DNA of 35,538 bases, taken from assembly GCA_043732485.1 (NCBI GenBank), contig JAYTHP010000087.1:1-35538 (forward strand). Reading direction: 5' to 3'. This document shows, piece after piece, positions 16,332 through 25,977 of this stretch. The notes beneath the pieces are model-generated. The model was not told the origin of the DNA. It ran no database searches and worked only from the letters and a program-made list of their open reading frames with translations. The position numbers and the translations under genes were made by a program. The DNA is from Oligoflexia bacterium. GTDB taxonomy: Bacteria; Bdellovibrionota; UBA1018. Positions within the stretch are counted from its first letter, which is position 1, and every line of letters starts with the position of its first letter.

Positions 16332-17267
16332 ATGACGCAAAACAACCACACCCGCCCCCTCCGTCGCCTTCCCGCTCCCCACCCTCAGGCAGCCAGGCTT
16401 ACACTCGTTTTGATCACCCTGGCCTTCCTCACTCACAGCAGCCCACCCCGCCGCTGCTTTGCCTGGAGTGACCGGGGCGGCAGTGCTGAGGAAAATGACG
16501 GCGCCATGGACGGGGGTACGCTAAAGGTCACAAACAATCTCAGAGACCGAGCGAGAACGCAGCCGGTCGCCCCGCTTCCTGCCGTGCCTAACGCTCTGGC
16601 GCAAGCTCTAAAAGCCTCCTTGCGCGGTTATTTTGGGGGCGCAGAAATCGTTTTTGCAAGCGCCGTGCGCTGGCAGACCGCCTCAGCCTGGCTCCCACCT
16701 GGCGGCAAAGGTCAGCCGGTCCTGAGTGATCACTTCTCAGGCTCTCTCTTCCCCAGCCCAACGCGCGCCTTGCAGGTCTATAACGAGGATGGCCGCGGGA
16801 GCGTCGATTTTAGCTGGCAGCCCGACCAGTCGCAACCCCCCAAGCGCGGTTCCGTCAAGATCACAGCCTGGCTCAAAGCTTCCCTACCTACCCGCAAGAT
16901 TTACCCAGGCGAAGGCTTATCGGAGGGTCTTTTTCGCGTGAGCCCGGTTGAAGTCACCCAAGGGCTGCACCGCAGTCTCAGGCATCAATTCTTCCCCCTG
17001 AAAGAACCGCTCACGGGCTTTCTTGCCCACCAAACTCTCCTGGAAGGCCAACCGCTTTTGCTCAGTGCGGTGAAGAAAAAACCTGATATTGAGCGCGGTG
17101 CGCACGTACAAGTGGAGATGCGAGCCGGATTGATCAAGCTCATGACCGAGGGCTTTGCCGAAGAACCAGGCTACTTTGAAAAAGACATTCACGTCCGCAC
17201 CCTATCCCGCAAGAAACAACTGCTCGGAAAACTCAAAGCAGGCGGCGTGGTTGAGGTCCGGTTGTGA
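16332..17267 (+). CDS. flgA: Flagellar P-ring formation chaperone FlgA
   Basis: Signal-like N-terminus and a C-terminal SAF/FlgA-type region (IERGAHVQV...GFAEEPG...IHVRTLSRKKQLLG...GVVEV). Lies between flgG and flgH. Confidence 0.85.
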   Translation: MTQNNHTRPLRRLPAPHPQAARLTLVLITLAFLTHSSPPRRCFAWSDRGGSAEENDGAMDGGTLKVTNNLRDRARTQPVAPLPAVPNALAQALKASLRGYFGGAEIVFASAVRWQTASAWLPPGGKGQPVLSDHFSGSLFPSPTRALQVYNEDGRGSVDFSWQPDQSQPPKRGSVKITAWLKASLPTRKIYPGEGLSEGLFRVSPVEVTQGLHRSLRHQFFPLKEPLTGFLAHQTLLEGQPLLLSAVKKKPDIERGAHVQVEMRAGLIKLMTEGFAEEPGYFEKDIHVRTLSRKKQLLGKLKAGGVVEVRL

Positions 17268-18547
17268 GTCCGGTTGGGCGAAGCAGGCAAGCCGCACTCC
17301 AAGTGTGCAGTTGCTTGCTCTTGAGTCTCGCTAGTTGCGCTTTCCCCAAAATGCGAGGCAGCAGTGACTCGAGCGGCCCCAATGCGTCAAAAAATCCCCA
17401 ACCCGCAGCCCTGAGCCCCTCCCAAGCCCCCGCCCCCTCCCAGCCAAAAGCCAACACTCCCTCCCCCGAGAACTCAAGCAGACTTACAAAATCTGACCCA
17501 GAAAAAGACGATGATCACGACGACGACGATGAGGACAACGAAGCTGACGCGCACGCAAAAAACCGCGTGCTTTTGTCGGAAGAGCCAGACGACGCAGATC
17601 AAGGAAGGCACCTCAGCAGCACCCGGCGCGAACCAGCAGGACTTGCCTACTCCCATGTGCCTTCAGACACTCACCCCCAAAGGCAAGCCAGACTCGGGCG
17701 AGGCCAGAGCCACGCCACCAGTGGCGCGCACTTCCCAAACTCCCCTGAAACCATGAGCCGCCCGCTGCTCTCCACCCAAACGCTGGCCAGGCTCATGCCT
17801 GGCACCAGGCGTTACTATTCCCAGCTCTCCTCGCAGCCCACCCAATTGGGGCGCGAAAAACAGCAGCCTCAGCAGCCGCGAGTACAAAAGGTCGATTTTC
17901 TTGATGAAAGCGCCAGTGACGGTTCGCTTTGGGCCTCCACCGGTCAGACTAACTATTATTTTACCAAAAATCGCATCCTCAGCCGAGGGGACCTAGTAAC
18001 CCTAGTGCTTGAAGGCGAGCTGCTGCAAGCCATTGGACATGAAATTGAATCCACCTTGTCGCCTCGGGAAAAGGAGCTGGAATGGGAGCAAGCAGGCTTT
18101 CGCGAAGCAAGCTTAAACCTCCTCAAGAATGCAGGCCGACAAAAGGCGCAAGACCAGCTCAAGACCACCTCCAGTGCCCCGCTTGCAGCGTCCCCCTCGC
18201 CCACAAGTGACACCGGCGGTAGCAGCGAAGCCAAGCCAAGCAGCAGCGCTGGTGCTGGAGCTACGACTGAAGAGCAGGCCTTCGCAGGCGAGACGAGTAG
18301 TAGTAATAGCGTCAATATTTTTTCATCCCTGAATTTAAAAAAAGGCGACCTGATGATGGCCGAGATCCTCGATCGCTATCCCAACGGCAATTATAAAATG
18401 CGGGCTTTTAAAAAGGTGGCTTACAAGAACGGCCCCCCGCGCGTGGTGATGATCCTAGGCCTACTGCAAGCAGGTGAAATAAATGAAGAGAATAACTTTA
18501 TCAAGTCGAGTAAACTCTATGATTACCGTGTCGAAATATCCCATTAA
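17264..18547 (+). CDS. flgH: Flagellar L-ring lipoprotein FlgH (divergent, with long low-complexity inserts)
   Basis: Lipobox LASC, GSLW, GDLVTL, ILDRYPNGNYKM and IKSSKL. Lies between flgA and flgI. Confidence 0.8.
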   Translation: MSPVGRSRQAALQVCSCLLLSLASCAFPKMRGSSDSSGPNASKNPQPAALSPSQAPAPSQPKANTPSPENSSRLTKSDPEKDDDHDDDDEDNEADAHAKNRVLLSEEPDDADQGRHLSSTRREPAGLAYSHVPSDTHPQRQARLGRGQSHATSGAHFPNSPETMSRPLLSTQTLARLMPGTRRYYSQLSSQPTQLGREKQQPQQPRVQKVDFLDESASDGSLWASTGQTNYYFTKNRILSRGDLVTLVLEGELLQAIGHEIESTLSPREKELEWEQAGFREASLNLLKNAGRQKAQDQLKTTSSAPLAASPSPTSDTGGSSEAKPSSSAGAGATTEEQAFAGETSSSNSVNIFSSLNLKKGDLMMAEILDRYPNGNYKMRAFKKVAYKNGPPRVVMILGLLQAGEINEENNFIKSSKLYDYRVEISH

Positions 18548-18548
18548 G

Positions 18549-19721
18549 GTGACGGCGCCAGCCGTTTGGCTCTGCGCCAACGCCTACTACTTCACTCCTT
18601 TTTTTCCTCGGCCTACCTACAGCTTGAGACGTAATCGTGCCTGCTTACGCTTCATGCTCCTGACGGTTTTTAGTCAAACACTCGGACAATCAATGATAGG
18701 TATTGAAATAGTTTACGCCGCTCGCATTAAAGATGTTGCCAGCGTTAAGGGAGTAAGAGAGAATGATCTTATAGGGTACGGCATCGTGGTCGGCTTAAAA
18801 GGTACCGGAGATTCTAGCAGTGAGACGACCAACCAGTCGCTTGCCATGCTTTACTCGAAGTTAGGCGTAGAGATGAAAAACAGTCCTGCGGTGAAGTCCA
18901 AGAACGTGGCTGCGGTGATTGTGACTGGTAAATTGCCACCTTTTGCTCGGATGGGCTTACACATGGACGTGACGGTGAGCTCTACGGGCGATGCCAGCAG
19001 TTTAGAAGGTGGAGTGTTACTCGTCACACCGCTACGGGCAGGGGATCAGGCGGTGTATGCGGTGGCTCAAGGAATGGTCTCGTTAGGGGCGCTGATTGAC
19101 GGCTCAAGCAAGGGATTCCCGACGGTAGGCCGGGTGATTCGAGGCGCGACGATTGAAAAGGATGTGAGCAACAGTTTTGCCACTAAAAAGAGTTATCGCT
19201 TGATGCTGCATGCCCCAGACTTTACCACGGCGGCCCGCGCCGTGATGCTGATTAACGGGGAACTCGGGGGCAAGTATGCCTCAGCCGGTGATGGTGGAAC
19301 GATTGACGTGATTGTACCCTTTAATTACGAGGGCAATCCGGTGGAATTTTTAGCGCGGATCGAGAATTTAGATCTCTCCGTCGATCGCAAGGCGAAAGTG
19401 GTGCTCAATGAGCGCACCGGAACCGTGGTGATCGGAGAGCATGTCCAGATCTCGCCAGTGGCGCTAGCCCACGGTGATCTGGCCATTGAGATTAAGGGGG
19501 CTCCGAAAGGCAGTAAGCCTGAGCGCTTTTTTGCCCTCAACTGGGGGGATAAAGAGCAGCAGCCGCAGCCGGTCAGTGGCGGTGGTGTCGCTGTGGGAGC
19601 ATCGGTGTCTGATTTAGTGAAGGGACTGAATGCCCTGGGAGTGCAGCCGAAGGATTTGACGGCAATTTTGCAAGCTTTGCGGGAGGCAGGGGCCTTACAA
19701 GCGGTGCTAGAGGTGATCTAG
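18549..19721 (+). CDS. flgI: Flagellar P-ring protein FlgI
   Basis: RIKDVASVKGVRENDLIGYGIVVGLKGTGD, KNVAAV and NERTGTVV. Start uncertain (GTG 18549, TTG 18624 or ATG 18654). Confidence 0.96.
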   Translation: MTAPAVWLCANAYYFTPFFPRPTYSLRRNRACLRFMLLTVFSQTLGQSMIGIEIVYAARIKDVASVKGVRENDLIGYGIVVGLKGTGDSSSETTNQSLAMLYSKLGVEMKNSPAVKSKNVAAVIVTGKLPPFARMGLHMDVTVSSTGDASSLEGGVLLVTPLRAGDQAVYAVAQGMVSLGALIDGSSKGFPTVGRVIRGATIEKDVSNSFATKKSYRLMLHAPDFTTAARAVMLINGELGGKYASAGDGGTIDVIVPFNYEGNPVEFLARIENLDLSVDRKAKVVLNERTGTVVIGEHVQISPVALAHGDLAIEIKGAPKGSKPERFFALNWGDKEQQPQPVSGGGVAVGASVSDLVKGLNALGVQPKDLTAILQALREAGALQAVLEVI

Positions 19722-19769
19722 CACCAGCAAAAAAAATTGGCAAACAGCAAAGCGCTCAGGTGTTTGCTG

Positions 19770-20015
19770 AGCCAGGGACACGACGAGCGAGTGCCTGTGC
19801 AAGGGTGCGTGCGAGTACAGTCAATAGTTTTTCAAAAGTTTGTCAGGAAGACAAGCAACGGAGTAGCGTGTGATCAAGGAAGAGCAACCAGGGTGCGGCA
19901 TCCAGGAAACAAGACTAATGCAGCGGCTTGCCAGGATGGCGGGTTTAAATGTCTTGCTGTCACCCTCCTCGCTTAAGAGCTCGCATGGATGCGAGACGCT
20001 ACGTCAGTTGCTTTT
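19770..20015 (+). ncRNA. Candidate CsrB/RsmZ-like CsrA-binding RNA element (sRNA or long flgJ leader)
   Basis: Seven A(N)GGA motifs, five in hand-identified hairpin loops, e.g. TTGTC-AGGAA-GACAA, GCC-AGGAT-GGC and CTCGC-ATGGAT-GCGAG. Boundaries approximate. Confidence 0.55.
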
Positions 20016-20045
20016 TACCCCCCATCGCACAGCGTGGGTGTCGGT

Positions 20046-20528
20046 ATGAGTACCCCTATCCAGAATGACCTACCTTCACGATTCGCTGAGCGGGATTTTG
20101 CTCCCGCAAACAGACTGCCGCTCGCACCCCCCCAGCGTCAGCACGACCCTGAACTGGTAAAAGCCGCCCAGGGGATGGAAGCCCTTTTCCTCGACTACCT
20201 CATGCAAGTCATGCGGCAAAGCATTCCCAAAAATGAGATGGGCATGAATTCTAACGCCATTGATCTCTATCAGGGCATGCTGGATTCAGAAATGACGCAG
20301 CAAGTGGCCCATCAGCAAGGAGGGGGGCAAGGTAGCGGGAGCAGGCTTGGGCTAGCCGATCAGATTCTCAACTCGCTTGACCCCCTGCCCGAGCCGCTGC
20401 CGCCGACTGATTTTCGCGCTCGCTTGCCCCAGGCTTACCAGAACCAAGCTCAAGAGCGCCAGACCGTGAGCAAGCAGCAGGCAGCTGCAGGCACCGCGAT
20501 CACAGAGAGATCAGATGCAGCAAACTAA
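20046..20528 (+). CDS. flgJ: FlgJ, rod-binding domain only (no muramidase domain)
   Basis: AAQGMEALFLDYLMQVMRQSIP...YQGMLDSEMTQQVA...LGLADQI rod-binding signature. Follows flgI. Confidence 0.88.
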   Translation: MSTPIQNDLPSRFAERDFAPANRLPLAPPQRQHDPELVKAAQGMEALFLDYLMQVMRQSIPKNEMGMNSNAIDLYQGMLDSEMTQQVAHQQGGGQGSGSRLGLADQILNSLDPLPEPLPPTDFRARLPQAYQNQAQERQTVSKQQAAAGTAITERSDAAN

Positions 20529-20779: not shown

Positions 20780-21196
20780 ATGAGCGCCATGAAAGTAAAC
20801 CCTACGACCACCGCTCCCGTTAACACGACGGGAGCCAAAACTCCCACGCCTGCCGCTGGCGTGAGCAGTACGAAAGACCCGAAAAAAGCCCAAGCAACCC
20901 AGAACGCCAAATCGACGGCTGAAGTCAAAAGAACCGACGCCTCCTCTCCTTCGGCCGTGGTGAAGCTTGGGGCAGACGGCCCCGAAAAGGCGAAAATAGC
21001 CCCGGCCCAGGCCGAAATTTCCAATAAAAGCAGGGAGATGGCCAAAGTCCTGACGACCGCCAACCAAGCCCCCGAAGTGCGGAGCGAAAAAGTGAATGAG
21101 CTGAAGGCTAAGATCAACAGCGGGACCTACGAAGTGGATGCCGATGCGGTGGCTGATCGCCTCGTGGACGACCACCTCAGGCTACCTGGCGCTTGA
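20780..21196 (+). CDS. flgM: Anti-sigma28 factor FlgM
   Basis: PEVRSEKVNELKAKINSGTYEVDADAVADRL motif and a strong AAGGAGG RBS. Confidence 0.93.
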   Translation: MSAMKVNPTTTAPVNTTGAKTPTPAAGVSSTKDPKKAQATQNAKSTAEVKRTDASSPSAVVKLGADGPEKAKIAPAQAEISNKSREMAKVLTTANQAPEVRSEKVNELKAKINSGTYEVDADAVADRLVDDHLRLPGA

Positions 21197-24323: not shown

Positions 24324-24519
24324 CATGAAACCCTTGCACGCCCAAGGCTTGCGGAGGGTGAGAAGACGGAGAATCAGGCAAGAAAGACTGCGCAAAGCTG
24401 AAAATTGAGTTGCAAGTCAACCAGACTTAGCCTAATCGTTCTTTCGGTAATGGAATGCTGAGGAGAGACACGGAGGCTTCGGATCGCATGCCGAAGTCGA
24501 GCGGAAGTGGGGCTAAAAC

Positions 24520-24533
24520 AAGATGGAGATCTT
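24520..24533 (+). promoter_or_regulatory. GGA-loop hairpin overlapping the csrA ribosome-binding site
   Basis: AAGAT-GGAG-ATCTT forms a perfect 5-bp stem immediately before the csrA ATG. Confidence 0.5.
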
Positions 24534-24770
24534 ATGTTAGTATTGACCCGAAAATTAGGTGAAAGTATCGCAATTGATGACCATATCAAGGTGGTCGTGG
24601 TCCAAATTAAAGGCAAACAGGTGCGGCTGGGGATTGAGGCACCCAAGGAGACGAAAATCCACCGCGAGGAGGTCTACCTAGCGATTCAGGAGCAAAACCA
24701 TGAGGCTGCCAATGCTCCGGCAAACGTGCCCCGCATTTTAGCGGAAGCCACCGGAGATTTGAAGAATTAA
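24534..24770 (+). CDS. csrA: Carbon storage regulator CsrA
   Basis: [14 protein letters not shown]...[20 protein letters not shown], plus the C-terminal IQEQNHEAA extension typical of FliW-binding CsrA. Confidence 0.97.
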
Positions 24771-25062: not shown

Positions 25063-25623
25063 GTGATCATTCAAACAGGACGTTTTGGTGAGATCGACGT
25101 CGAGCCTGAAGCAAGAATTCAGGTCAAACAAGGGTTGCTGGGGTTTCCTAAGCAGACGGAGTTTTGCCTGGTAGATCCACAAGACGAGAATTTTATTATC
25201 TGGTTACAGTCGATGGACCAACCGAAGATTGCCTTCCCGCTGCTTGAGCCGAGATTTTTCCAAAAAAATTACTGCGTCAAACTTTCAGGCGTGGAGTTAA
25301 GAGATTTGCAGCTTGAAGCCATTCACCAAGCTGCGGTTTTTGTCATCTTGACGATTCCTGAGAATATTCAGTTGATGACGGCTAACCTTAAGGCGCCCTT
25401 AGTGATTAACCTCCAAGCGCAGTGCGCCAAGCAGGTGATCTTACAGGAAAATGATTACCCCATTAAGTATCCCATTTTTAAGGAGTTTCGCAGCTATTTA
25501 GGCACCTTGCCTGCCGCAGCTCCCCTGCCTACAGCGAGCGTCGTCCCTTCCCCAGCAACCGCAAGCGTCATTCCGGTGGCGCAGCTCAAGTCCTCTACTG
25601 CCATTAGTAGTTTAGGGCTTTGA
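25063..25623 (+). CDS. fliW: Flagellar assembly factor FliW
   Basis: IQTGRFGEI, GLLGF, WLQS, MTANLKAPLVIN and AKQVIL. Confidence 0.96.
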   Translation: MIIQTGRFGEIDVEPEARIQVKQGLLGFPKQTEFCLVDPQDENFIIWLQSMDQPKIAFPLLEPRFFQKNYCVKLSGVELRDLQLEAIHQAAVFVILTIPENIQLMTANLKAPLVINLQAQCAKQVILQENDYPIKYPIFKEFRSYLGTLPAAAPLPTASVVPSPATASVIPVAQLKSSTAISSLGL

Positions 25624-25977
25624 CCAAAAAGCGTTACCTCCGCCCCCCTCTTCGCTTGGAAGCTTAAGCACCGACTTTGCTTGAAGGCGACTGGTAGAGC
25701 GTTTGGGGGCAAGAAAAGAAAAAAAGGGGGGAGAGGGAAGCCCCGGCTGCAGTAATTAGCCAGCCAGCCAACGGGCTGTGCTCCTGCAGCGCTTGAACGC
25801 TGCAAACCGTGTCAATTGCACTAGGCCTTTGCTCATGTCTTAGCCAGCGGGTCGACTAAGGGGCTGACACGTGCCCGCCTTTGACTCGTCATCACCCACC
25901 ACCCTGCCCCTGAAGCTTCCCGAAAATTCAAAAAACTAGCGTCTCGCGCTTGCAAAAATGTGCCTTCTACCCGCACC

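Follow-up and report, generated by a model that had tools for sequence, protein, structure and literature searches.

The flagellar operon of this member of the Bdellovibrionota raises the question of whether a bacterium that possesses CsrA together with its partner FliW may also place CsrA under the control of an RNA of the CsrB/RsmZ kind. A 2020 review states that joint action of FliW and sRNAs on CsrA, in whatever species, 'remains to be determined' (PMC7652899), and a 2026 paper still presents them as alternatives to each other, FliW bacteria having no such sRNAs (PMC13407953). For Geobacter, the accessible part of one study gives only software-predicted sRNA candidates, at other loci (PMC11934962).

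The window, i.e. the whole stretch of 35,538 nt that was analysed, is contig C87 of a 2.58-Mb genome with a completeness of 89%. Pfam assignments give the gene order flgF-G-A-H-I-J-M-N-K-L-csrA-fliW, in agreement with the original prediction of a csrA–fliW operon around the flgI–flgJ spacer (flgI-J-M-N-K-L-csrA-fliW); the spacer (19722–20045) does measure 324 nt. The genes that matter here are:

18483..19721, + strand, flgI (PF02119), with the true start probably near 18720
20046..20528, + strand, flgJ, rod-binding domain only (PF10135), with the start set by comparison with relatives
20780..21196, + strand, flgM (PF04316)
24534..24770, + strand, csrA, with R44, N55 and a C-terminal extension (PF02599)
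25063..25623, + strand, fliW (PF02623)

Upstream of these, the flgH ORF (17264–18547) contains about 200 low-complexity residues preceding the L-ring domain.

GGA sites and predicted fold of the spacer

The spacer had been read as an array of GGA hairpins, and a check of the sequence finds its seven GGAs at exactly the positions given (19776, 19846, 19860, 19878, 19905, 19934 and 19987), 7/7 in A(N)GGA context and four of them (19846, 19878, 19934 and 19987) fitting CA(N)GGANG. In 2000 dinucleotide shuffles the raw GGA count is near chance, as had been acknowledged (7 versus 4.3, p=0.11, not significant), the A(N)GGA context is in excess (7 versus 2.1, p=0.001) and loop placement, which had been named as the signal, is above chance, with 3 strong local GGA-loop hairpins versus 0.3 (p=0.002). 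A second test, on 19822–20030, gave 4 in-loop sites versus 0.23, a number reached in 0/500 shuffles. Overall folding is unexceptional (z −0.60 for 19770–20020 and −1.84 for 19836–20017). Genome-wide, loops contain 17.8% of the 28,668 A(N)GGA sites. On the single-sequence test the locus is not unique but ranks among 12 top-scoring windows, most of the 11 others lying inside or opposite long ORFs. Single-sequence statistics alone are insufficient for the claim, and the decisive evidence is comparative.

The predicted RNA is made up of the following parts:

19836..20016, + strand, structured RNA element of about 180 nt, predicted extent (fold; match of model R2)
19838..19856, + strand, hairpin 0, AGGAA loop (GGA 19846), −6.5 kcal/mol
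19854..19869, + strand, predicted 5' arm of the closing stem, with GGA 19860 in an internal loop (centroid of the 19836–20017 fold)
19871..19886, + strand, hairpin A (GGA 19878), weak here, covarying in relatives (42-row alignment)
19902..19915, + strand, invariant CCAGGAAAC (GGA 19905), unpaired, then the 5' arm of stem P2 (19910–19915) (alignment columns)
19925..19945, + strand, hairpin C, AGGAU loop (GGA 19934), −9.4 kcal/mol, 91.4% paired over 42 rows
19951..19956, + strand, 3' arm of stem P2, 86.1% paired, double changes at 5/6 pairs
19980..19995, + strand, hairpin E, AUGGAU loop (GGA 19987), −6.9 kcal/mol (helices 5–6 of the alignment)
19996..20016, + strand, 3' arm of the closing stem and U5 run, terminator-like, weak (fold)
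19816..19821, + strand, −10-like hexamer, weak (4/6) and without a −35, which may be chance (sequence)

The two ends of the element, 19836 and 20016, are set from the fold and from the architecture of APsRNA1, an sRNA of Bdellovibrio bacteriovorus discussed below; the conserved element does not reach GGA 19776, a site that is paired for the most part. Of five GGA-loop hairpins originally proposed, those at 19846, 19934 and 19987 are stable alone. The segment 19855–67 yields only −1.1 kcal/mol as a hairpin of its own and, from the fold of 19836–20017, is more likely the 5' arm of the closing stem with 19996–20012, with an alternative fold at this stem once the flgJ sequence is added. The hairpin at 19871–86 (hairpin A) has no favourable energy alone and owes its support to the alignment with relatives, where its helix is 85.7% paired with double changes at 4/5 pairs. 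Around GGA 19905, CCAGGAAAC has an unpaired probability of 0.8–0.96. Hairpin 0 precedes the closing stem, as in APsRNA1-type loci, and since it falls outside model R2 its homology is one of position only. A T run had been noted near 20012 and is located at 20012–20016; a terminator scan did not report the stem and U5 of 19996–20016, and a promoter scan of the window found none for the element. A sigma-54 promoter at the start of the spacer was considered and rejected, as the TTGGCA there has the wrong spacing.

Conservation of the element and its likely kinship with APsRNA1

The element is real and conserved. For the window's order, among the 30 best flgI loci from 41 genomes, picked by flgI similarity alone, the core CCAGGARAY-gap-GCYAGGATGG follows flgI in 29/30 including the window (28/29 relatives), the sole locus without it being one from which the flgI–flgJ spacer is absent (L030). 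A genome-wide scan for the pattern proved too loose, as among at least 120 loci 16 lay beside flg genes and 104 did not. The relatives were examined for covariation, as had been proposed, in a 42-row alignment (A1) composed of the 29 order loci and 13/16 flg-linked pattern matches, with three duplicate loci left out and the 13 added rows having been selected by the pattern. On a manually specified structure, 83.7% of 1126 cells are paired versus 75.5% when shuffled and there are 96 double changes versus 34, with 0/500 shuffles reaching either value, a significance inflated by the relatedness of the rows. Sliding the structure along the alignment lowers pairing to 30–48%, RNAalifold independently recovers hairpins A and C, and a three-pair extension of P2 is poor (60% paired). 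In the loops, A, G, G and A are conserved in relatives and the N in between varies, and a conserved AGGA with a free N is also what the relevant passage of the 2020 review gives for the CsrB repeat and the SELEX consensus (PMC7652899). Codons of the core are fixed at synonymous sites, with CAG in 42/42 rows and AGG in 42/42, versus genome use of 49% and 11%.

Model R2, built from 37 rows with the window excluded, matches the window at 19865–20001 with 71.2 bits (E 4.9e-15), and this is the single copy in the whole genome; the next matches have E 3.4 and 6.2, and the search gave no paralog. In the phylum it matched 24/150 genomes, several being training genomes. The claim of a multi-site CsrA-binding RNA in a csrA–fliW organism thereby gains strong comparative support, in conserved sites and covarying stems, and each of the two readings first offered, a sponge RNA and a multi-site operator for flgJ–flgM translation, keeps its standing. 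One locus of the Bdellovibrionota type, flgI–element–flgJ, comes from a record titled Nitrosovibrio (L105), the label or binning of which may be wrong.

No Rfam model of the Csr/Rsm families matched the window at gathering score, and in 12 loci searched at E<=5 none of these families was among 6 weak matches. A counterpart does exist in B. bacteriovorus HD100, where Karunker et al. (2013) mapped the start of APsRNA1, an RNA of 207 nt at 499,375–499,581 (PMC3627812). According to the expression data consulted from that paper, it reaches 50,451 RPKM in attack phase versus 3,181 in growth phase, a 16-fold difference, and the top flagellin has 11,984 RPKM in attack phase. The neighbouring flgI (498,325–499,332) stands at 15.0/9.0 and flgJ (from 499,642) at 7.7/41.5 RPKM (attack/growth), placing APsRNA1 >3,000-fold above both genes and about 6,500-fold above flgJ in attack phase (PMC3627812). 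Its own start and this excess of thousands-fold over its neighbours indicate a separate transcript and not a piece of mRNA, so that the proposal of an RNA processed from the flagellar mRNA fails for B. bacteriovorus (PMC3627812). APsRNA1 is not marked with a FliA promoter in the material consulted; the main text assigns it no function, found nothing homologous beyond B. bacteriovorus and is silent on CsrA, and mRNA pairing is suggested there for attack-phase sRNAs (PMC3627812). Within the literature searched, which left most subscription journals outside, the name APsRNA1 was found in this one paper only and no link between it and CsrA was found.

The window element shares with APsRNA1 its flgI–flgJ position and its order of blocks, namely GGA hairpin, closing stem, GGA hairpin, CAGGAAAC, two GGA hairpins, stem and U run. 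The printed APsRNA1 sequence has the blocks of the form seen in family f20, and the element of one of the surveyed loci (L157) resembles it by eye. The window form differs in being too diverged for a direct model match, in its weak terminator and in an ORF that ends on the flgJ start. A survey of 40 further flgI loci of the phylum found the element in 25, a reduced form in 5 (all f21) and none in 10. It is present in f13 (4/4), f20 (5/6), f23 (3/3), f10 (3/3), f2 (1/2) and six single-genome families, and as a variant in f15 (3/3); f20, f23 and the families allied to them have a form closed by a long stem with a U run. In the f21 loci (L161–L165) the flgI–flgJ spacer is short and contains a −10-like box, and a single GGA hairpin or a pair of them lies by the flgJ start, possibly a reduced element acting as a plain operator.

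In the alignment of APsRNA1-type loci, 83.0% of cells are paired and there are 17 double changes versus 6.7 shuffled, although two of the five measures show no excess over shuffling. In the two further alignments (A2 and A3), the 5' and 3' limits of elements from distant groups were set by counting and are approximate. The first hairpin is exactly ACA-N-GGA-UGU in 7/14 of these loci, and a −10-like hexamer lies 9–16 nt upstream in 11/14 (raw count). All four f13 loci (L151–L154) carry a sigma-54-like TTGGCA-N7-TGCA just before the element, seen by eye in the first 40 nt after the flgI stop; the −10 boxes of APsRNA1-type loci are sigma-70-like, and compared with f13 the promoter type may have switched.

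Model R1, built from the 14 APsRNA1-type loci only, found one copy in 24/150 genomes, each directly after flgI, and these whole-genome searches found neither the window nor any genome of its class. Against the window element it gave no real match (4.6 bits, E 6.8), yet it finds the element in two loci of the window's order, L190 (E 4e-4) and L188 (E 6e-3), and also matches L179, L151 and L009 at the element (E<0.05). It has one off-target match of 21.6 bits, inside flgI of L012. In the other direction, R2 matches 13/14 APsRNA1-type loci at places that lie inside the element or overlap it (E 1e-6 to 0.36, 8 at E<0.05), versus 2 weak off-position matches in 19 other loci, and in one genome that belongs to neither training set (G141) both models match at one place. 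Because of these cross-tests and the joint match in G141, common ancestry is likely, and the window element is likely a homolog of APsRNA1; since R1 misses the window and has its off-target match in L012, the link runs through intermediate genomes and synteny. Outside the phylum, the element was not found with R1 or R2 in 52 flgI loci (one weak match, E 0.24), where in-loop counts are at most 3 and mostly 0–1.

The best R1 match in the window lies elsewhere, at 25720–25910 on the minus strand downstream of fliW (23.9 bits, E 3e-4). It has a G-rich/C-rich closing stem and a long U run, a folding z of 0.24 and no Rfam match, and is probably terminator-like.

A short ORF through the RNA and the flgJ start

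In the window's order the element is crossed by an ORF, which in the window is:

19870..20049, + strand, 59-codon ORF with a GTG start, running through the element, its TGA overlapping the flgJ ATG (frame conservation)

Across the order the end of this ORF coincides with the flgJ start or lies next to it in 26/29 loci, in 24/29 the ORF also starts on the flgI stop (NTGA), and both offsets are in frame in 26/29 despite many different lengths. Stop-free frames number 24 of 29 versus about 2.7 expected with the core fixed, an expectation that is slightly low, as the null took 90 nt downstream versus 75 nt observed, and the kin are non-independent. A profile search returned 262 related small predicted proteins, with a WxDF-type N-terminal motif in 139 of the best 150, and pN/pS is 0.36 in frame versus 0.83 and 1.53 in the others (17 motif-selected rows, hence partly circular). 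Judged from these comparisons the ORF is clearly under selection, which at its N-terminus appears to act at the level of the protein. The small protein has no Pfam match, no usable Atlas match, no names in 3 clusters and a predicted structure with a pLDDT of 0.33. The family (L002–L029; P0001–P0150) has 66–126 aa and an N-terminal IxWxDFxLDDxxGPxL motif, a part lost from the window copy, which has its own GGAG at 19860. This GGAG (19860–63) doubles as the likely Shine–Dalgarno of the ORF, so that in the window a predicted CsrA site lies, by sequence, over the ORF ribosome site (19858–63).

Translation of the region had been expected to speak against the original prediction. The region is indeed conserved as an ORF, yet translation and predicted CsrA sites coexist, since the frame is conserved and the RNA motif is under a separate constraint, seen at synonymous sites. 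Two other frames had been considered at this place. The ORF at 19737–19976 is in another frame, closed by a stop in the conserved core of most relatives, and a flgJ start at 19989 is discounted by relatives, which place the start at the position of 20046.

The flgJ start itself lies within a hairpin of −17 to −47 kcal/mol in 24/24 loci (five, including the window, were left out), and five or more U follow this hairpin in 2/24 loci of the order. Given these few U tracts and the lack of a promoter in the scan, a separate transcript finds no support in the window's order. In f13 the matching hairpin carries a U run and is located before flgJ. The frame is conserved neither in f13 nor across f20, and L005, L012 and f13 still have the RNA despite a broken frame. 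A terminated sRNA gene internal to the operon may have been made transparent to read-through by translation across it, and its terminator hairpin may have become a structure that couples flgJ to the ORF.

One reading of the locus is a small protein gene only, in which the GGAs are by-products of codons (Met-Glu, Gln-Glu, Arg-Met). The 262 relatives, the shared motif and the partly circular pN/pS would suit it, but the synonymous sites of the core are frozen, a Val/Ala change in the ORF retains a base pair, the RNA outlasts the broken frame, and the window has lost the conserved N-terminus and kept the RNA. Covariation already largely refutes this reading, which we regard as very improbable.

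A probable CsrA decoy and a possible operator

The evidence is best explained if the spacer element is a CsrB/RsmZ-like CsrA decoy coexisting with FliW, a reading that we consider probable. With five to six A(N)GGA sites exposed, the RNA would bind several CsrA dimers and act as a decoy that draws CsrA away from the mRNAs of flagellin and other proteins whenever the predator has to swim, and would supply, next to FliW, a second input. In the window's order a leader ORF overlies this RNA and may also make it a CsrA operator for flgJ. Ribosomes passing along the ORF would unfold the hairpins and drive CsrA off, exposing the flgJ start; a copy left untranslated would be a decoy and a translated one would lead to flgJ. 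csrA and fliW are present in 50/50 genomes tested, with or without the element, and the 21 CsrAs compared all share R44 and N55, N55 being the mark of FliW-binding CsrAs (PMC13407953). Another paper finds a hag reporter that bears GGA to be repressed by the CsrA of B. bacteriovorus, and csrA has been implicated in predation by a transposon screen reported in work cited there (PMC13443453). All five flagellin genes of the genome have a GGA in the ribosome site and two have several upstream A(N)GGA. These two leaders (G000:C226 upstream of 13963 and C170 upstream of 1477), in which several A(N)GGA extend as far as the ribosome site, are plausible or likely CsrA targets. Weighing against the decoy reading, besides the indirect link to APsRNA1, the negative Rfam search, the small number of sites and the lack of support for a separate transcript in the window's order, are the selection on the ORF, which a pure decoy would not need, and the 10/40 loci without the element and 5 with a reduced one despite csrA and fliW in the genomes.

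The element resembles CsrB/CsrC and RsmX/Y/Z in having several A(N)GGA in short hairpin loops or single strands and, in its Bdellovibrio form, in being a discrete abundant RNA that ends in a stem and U run. It differs in that its sites are fewer (five to seven in the window element versus 22 GGAs in CsrB), set within one multi-branch fold and inside a flagellar operon, and in that its host has a CsrA with N55 and a FliW partner; those RNAs are further recognised by being untranslated, and in the window's order a frame-conserved ORF overlaps the element. The flaA mRNA sponge of Campylobacter jejuni is the one precedent for titration of CsrA by RNA where FliW is present, and it likewise concerns flagellar genes; there, in the account available, the sponge is the target's own leader, and here it is a dedicated multi-site element (PMC4894983), which in at least one relative is a separate sRNA. 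Coupling through an ORF also has one precedent, idlP (ORF27)–iraD of Escherichia coli, where, as described in the section consulted, a short upstream ORF overlaps the next gene and has CsrA sites at its start (PMC7652899). This last feature is true of this window too, but here the ORF has 59–104 codons, is order-wide, is usually coupled upstream as well and lies over a decoy-like RNA.

The strongest alternative, which need not exclude a decoy, is that the element serves in this lineage chiefly as an operator in cis, where CsrA would block the leader ORF and the coupled flgJ would fall too. CsrA could also shut the ORF in this genome because its ribosome site, with the ACGGA as Shine–Dalgarno, is one of the A(N)GGA sites. 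The ORF end at flgJ with the frame kept (26/29) and the hairpin over the flgJ start in 24/24 loci, mostly without a U tract, suit this arrangement, as do the precedents of iraD (PMC7652899) and, in the part of that study consulted, of inter-cistron CsrA sites in Campylobacter (PMC4894983). Against it, the stem and U run that end the APsRNA1-type and f13 forms before flgJ go unexplained, as does the attack-phase level of APsRNA1 reported in the data consulted, about 6,500-fold above flgJ (PMC3627812), and most relatives have the ORF start on the flgI stop, at a distance from the GGAs, so that CsrA would have to halt elongating ribosomes. We consider such an operator as the main function unlikely. 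Taken over these two leading readings, binding of CsrA by the element is very likely.

Less probable still is a conserved structured RNA with a partner other than CsrA, be it another protein or mRNAs bound by pairing. A long covarying scaffold and the invariant CCAGGAAAC exceed what CsrA needs, and the presence of the element does not track csrA and fliW, found in 50/50 genomes, but what is conserved in single strands is nearly confined to repeated A(N)GGA loops whose N is free to vary, within an operon that contains csrA, which makes such a partner rather doubtful. A chance cluster of GGA hairpins, which eleven other genome windows with equal scores and the weak folding z might suggest, is refuted by conservation, covariation and the 71-bit match of R2 and can be given hardly any credence.

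Returning to the decoy, a wider proposal can be put forward tentatively, in which Bdellovibrionota run FliW and a CsrB-like sRNA, the APsRNA1 family, together, and one order has turned it into a dual-function RNA toggled by ribosomes. The sRNA, nested in the flagellar operon, would be on in attack phase and, when read through in frame from flgI to flgJ, would serve as the message for flgJ and a new small protein.

In APsRNA1, a candidate for joint control by FliW and an sRNA is already known as an expressed, phase-regulated and abundant RNA of a laboratory organism, which opens the way to direct experiment. A function is thereby proposed for the orphan Bdellovibrio sRNA APsRNA1, in a predator, and an unannotated family of small proteins overlapping the RNA is brought to light.

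Loci resembling merRNA-type c-di-GMP riboswitches (L255–L257), none of which occurs in this genome, were considered as a second decoy and rejected, as A(N)GGA is not enriched in their loops; A(N)GGA itself is mildly enriched in 2/3 (p 0.023, 0.013 and 0.21). Within the window, the flgL–csrA spacer (24324–24533, + strand, 210 nt) has 8 GGAs, 5 of them in A(N)GGA context and one at the csrA ribosome site, and is a candidate for csrA autoregulation.
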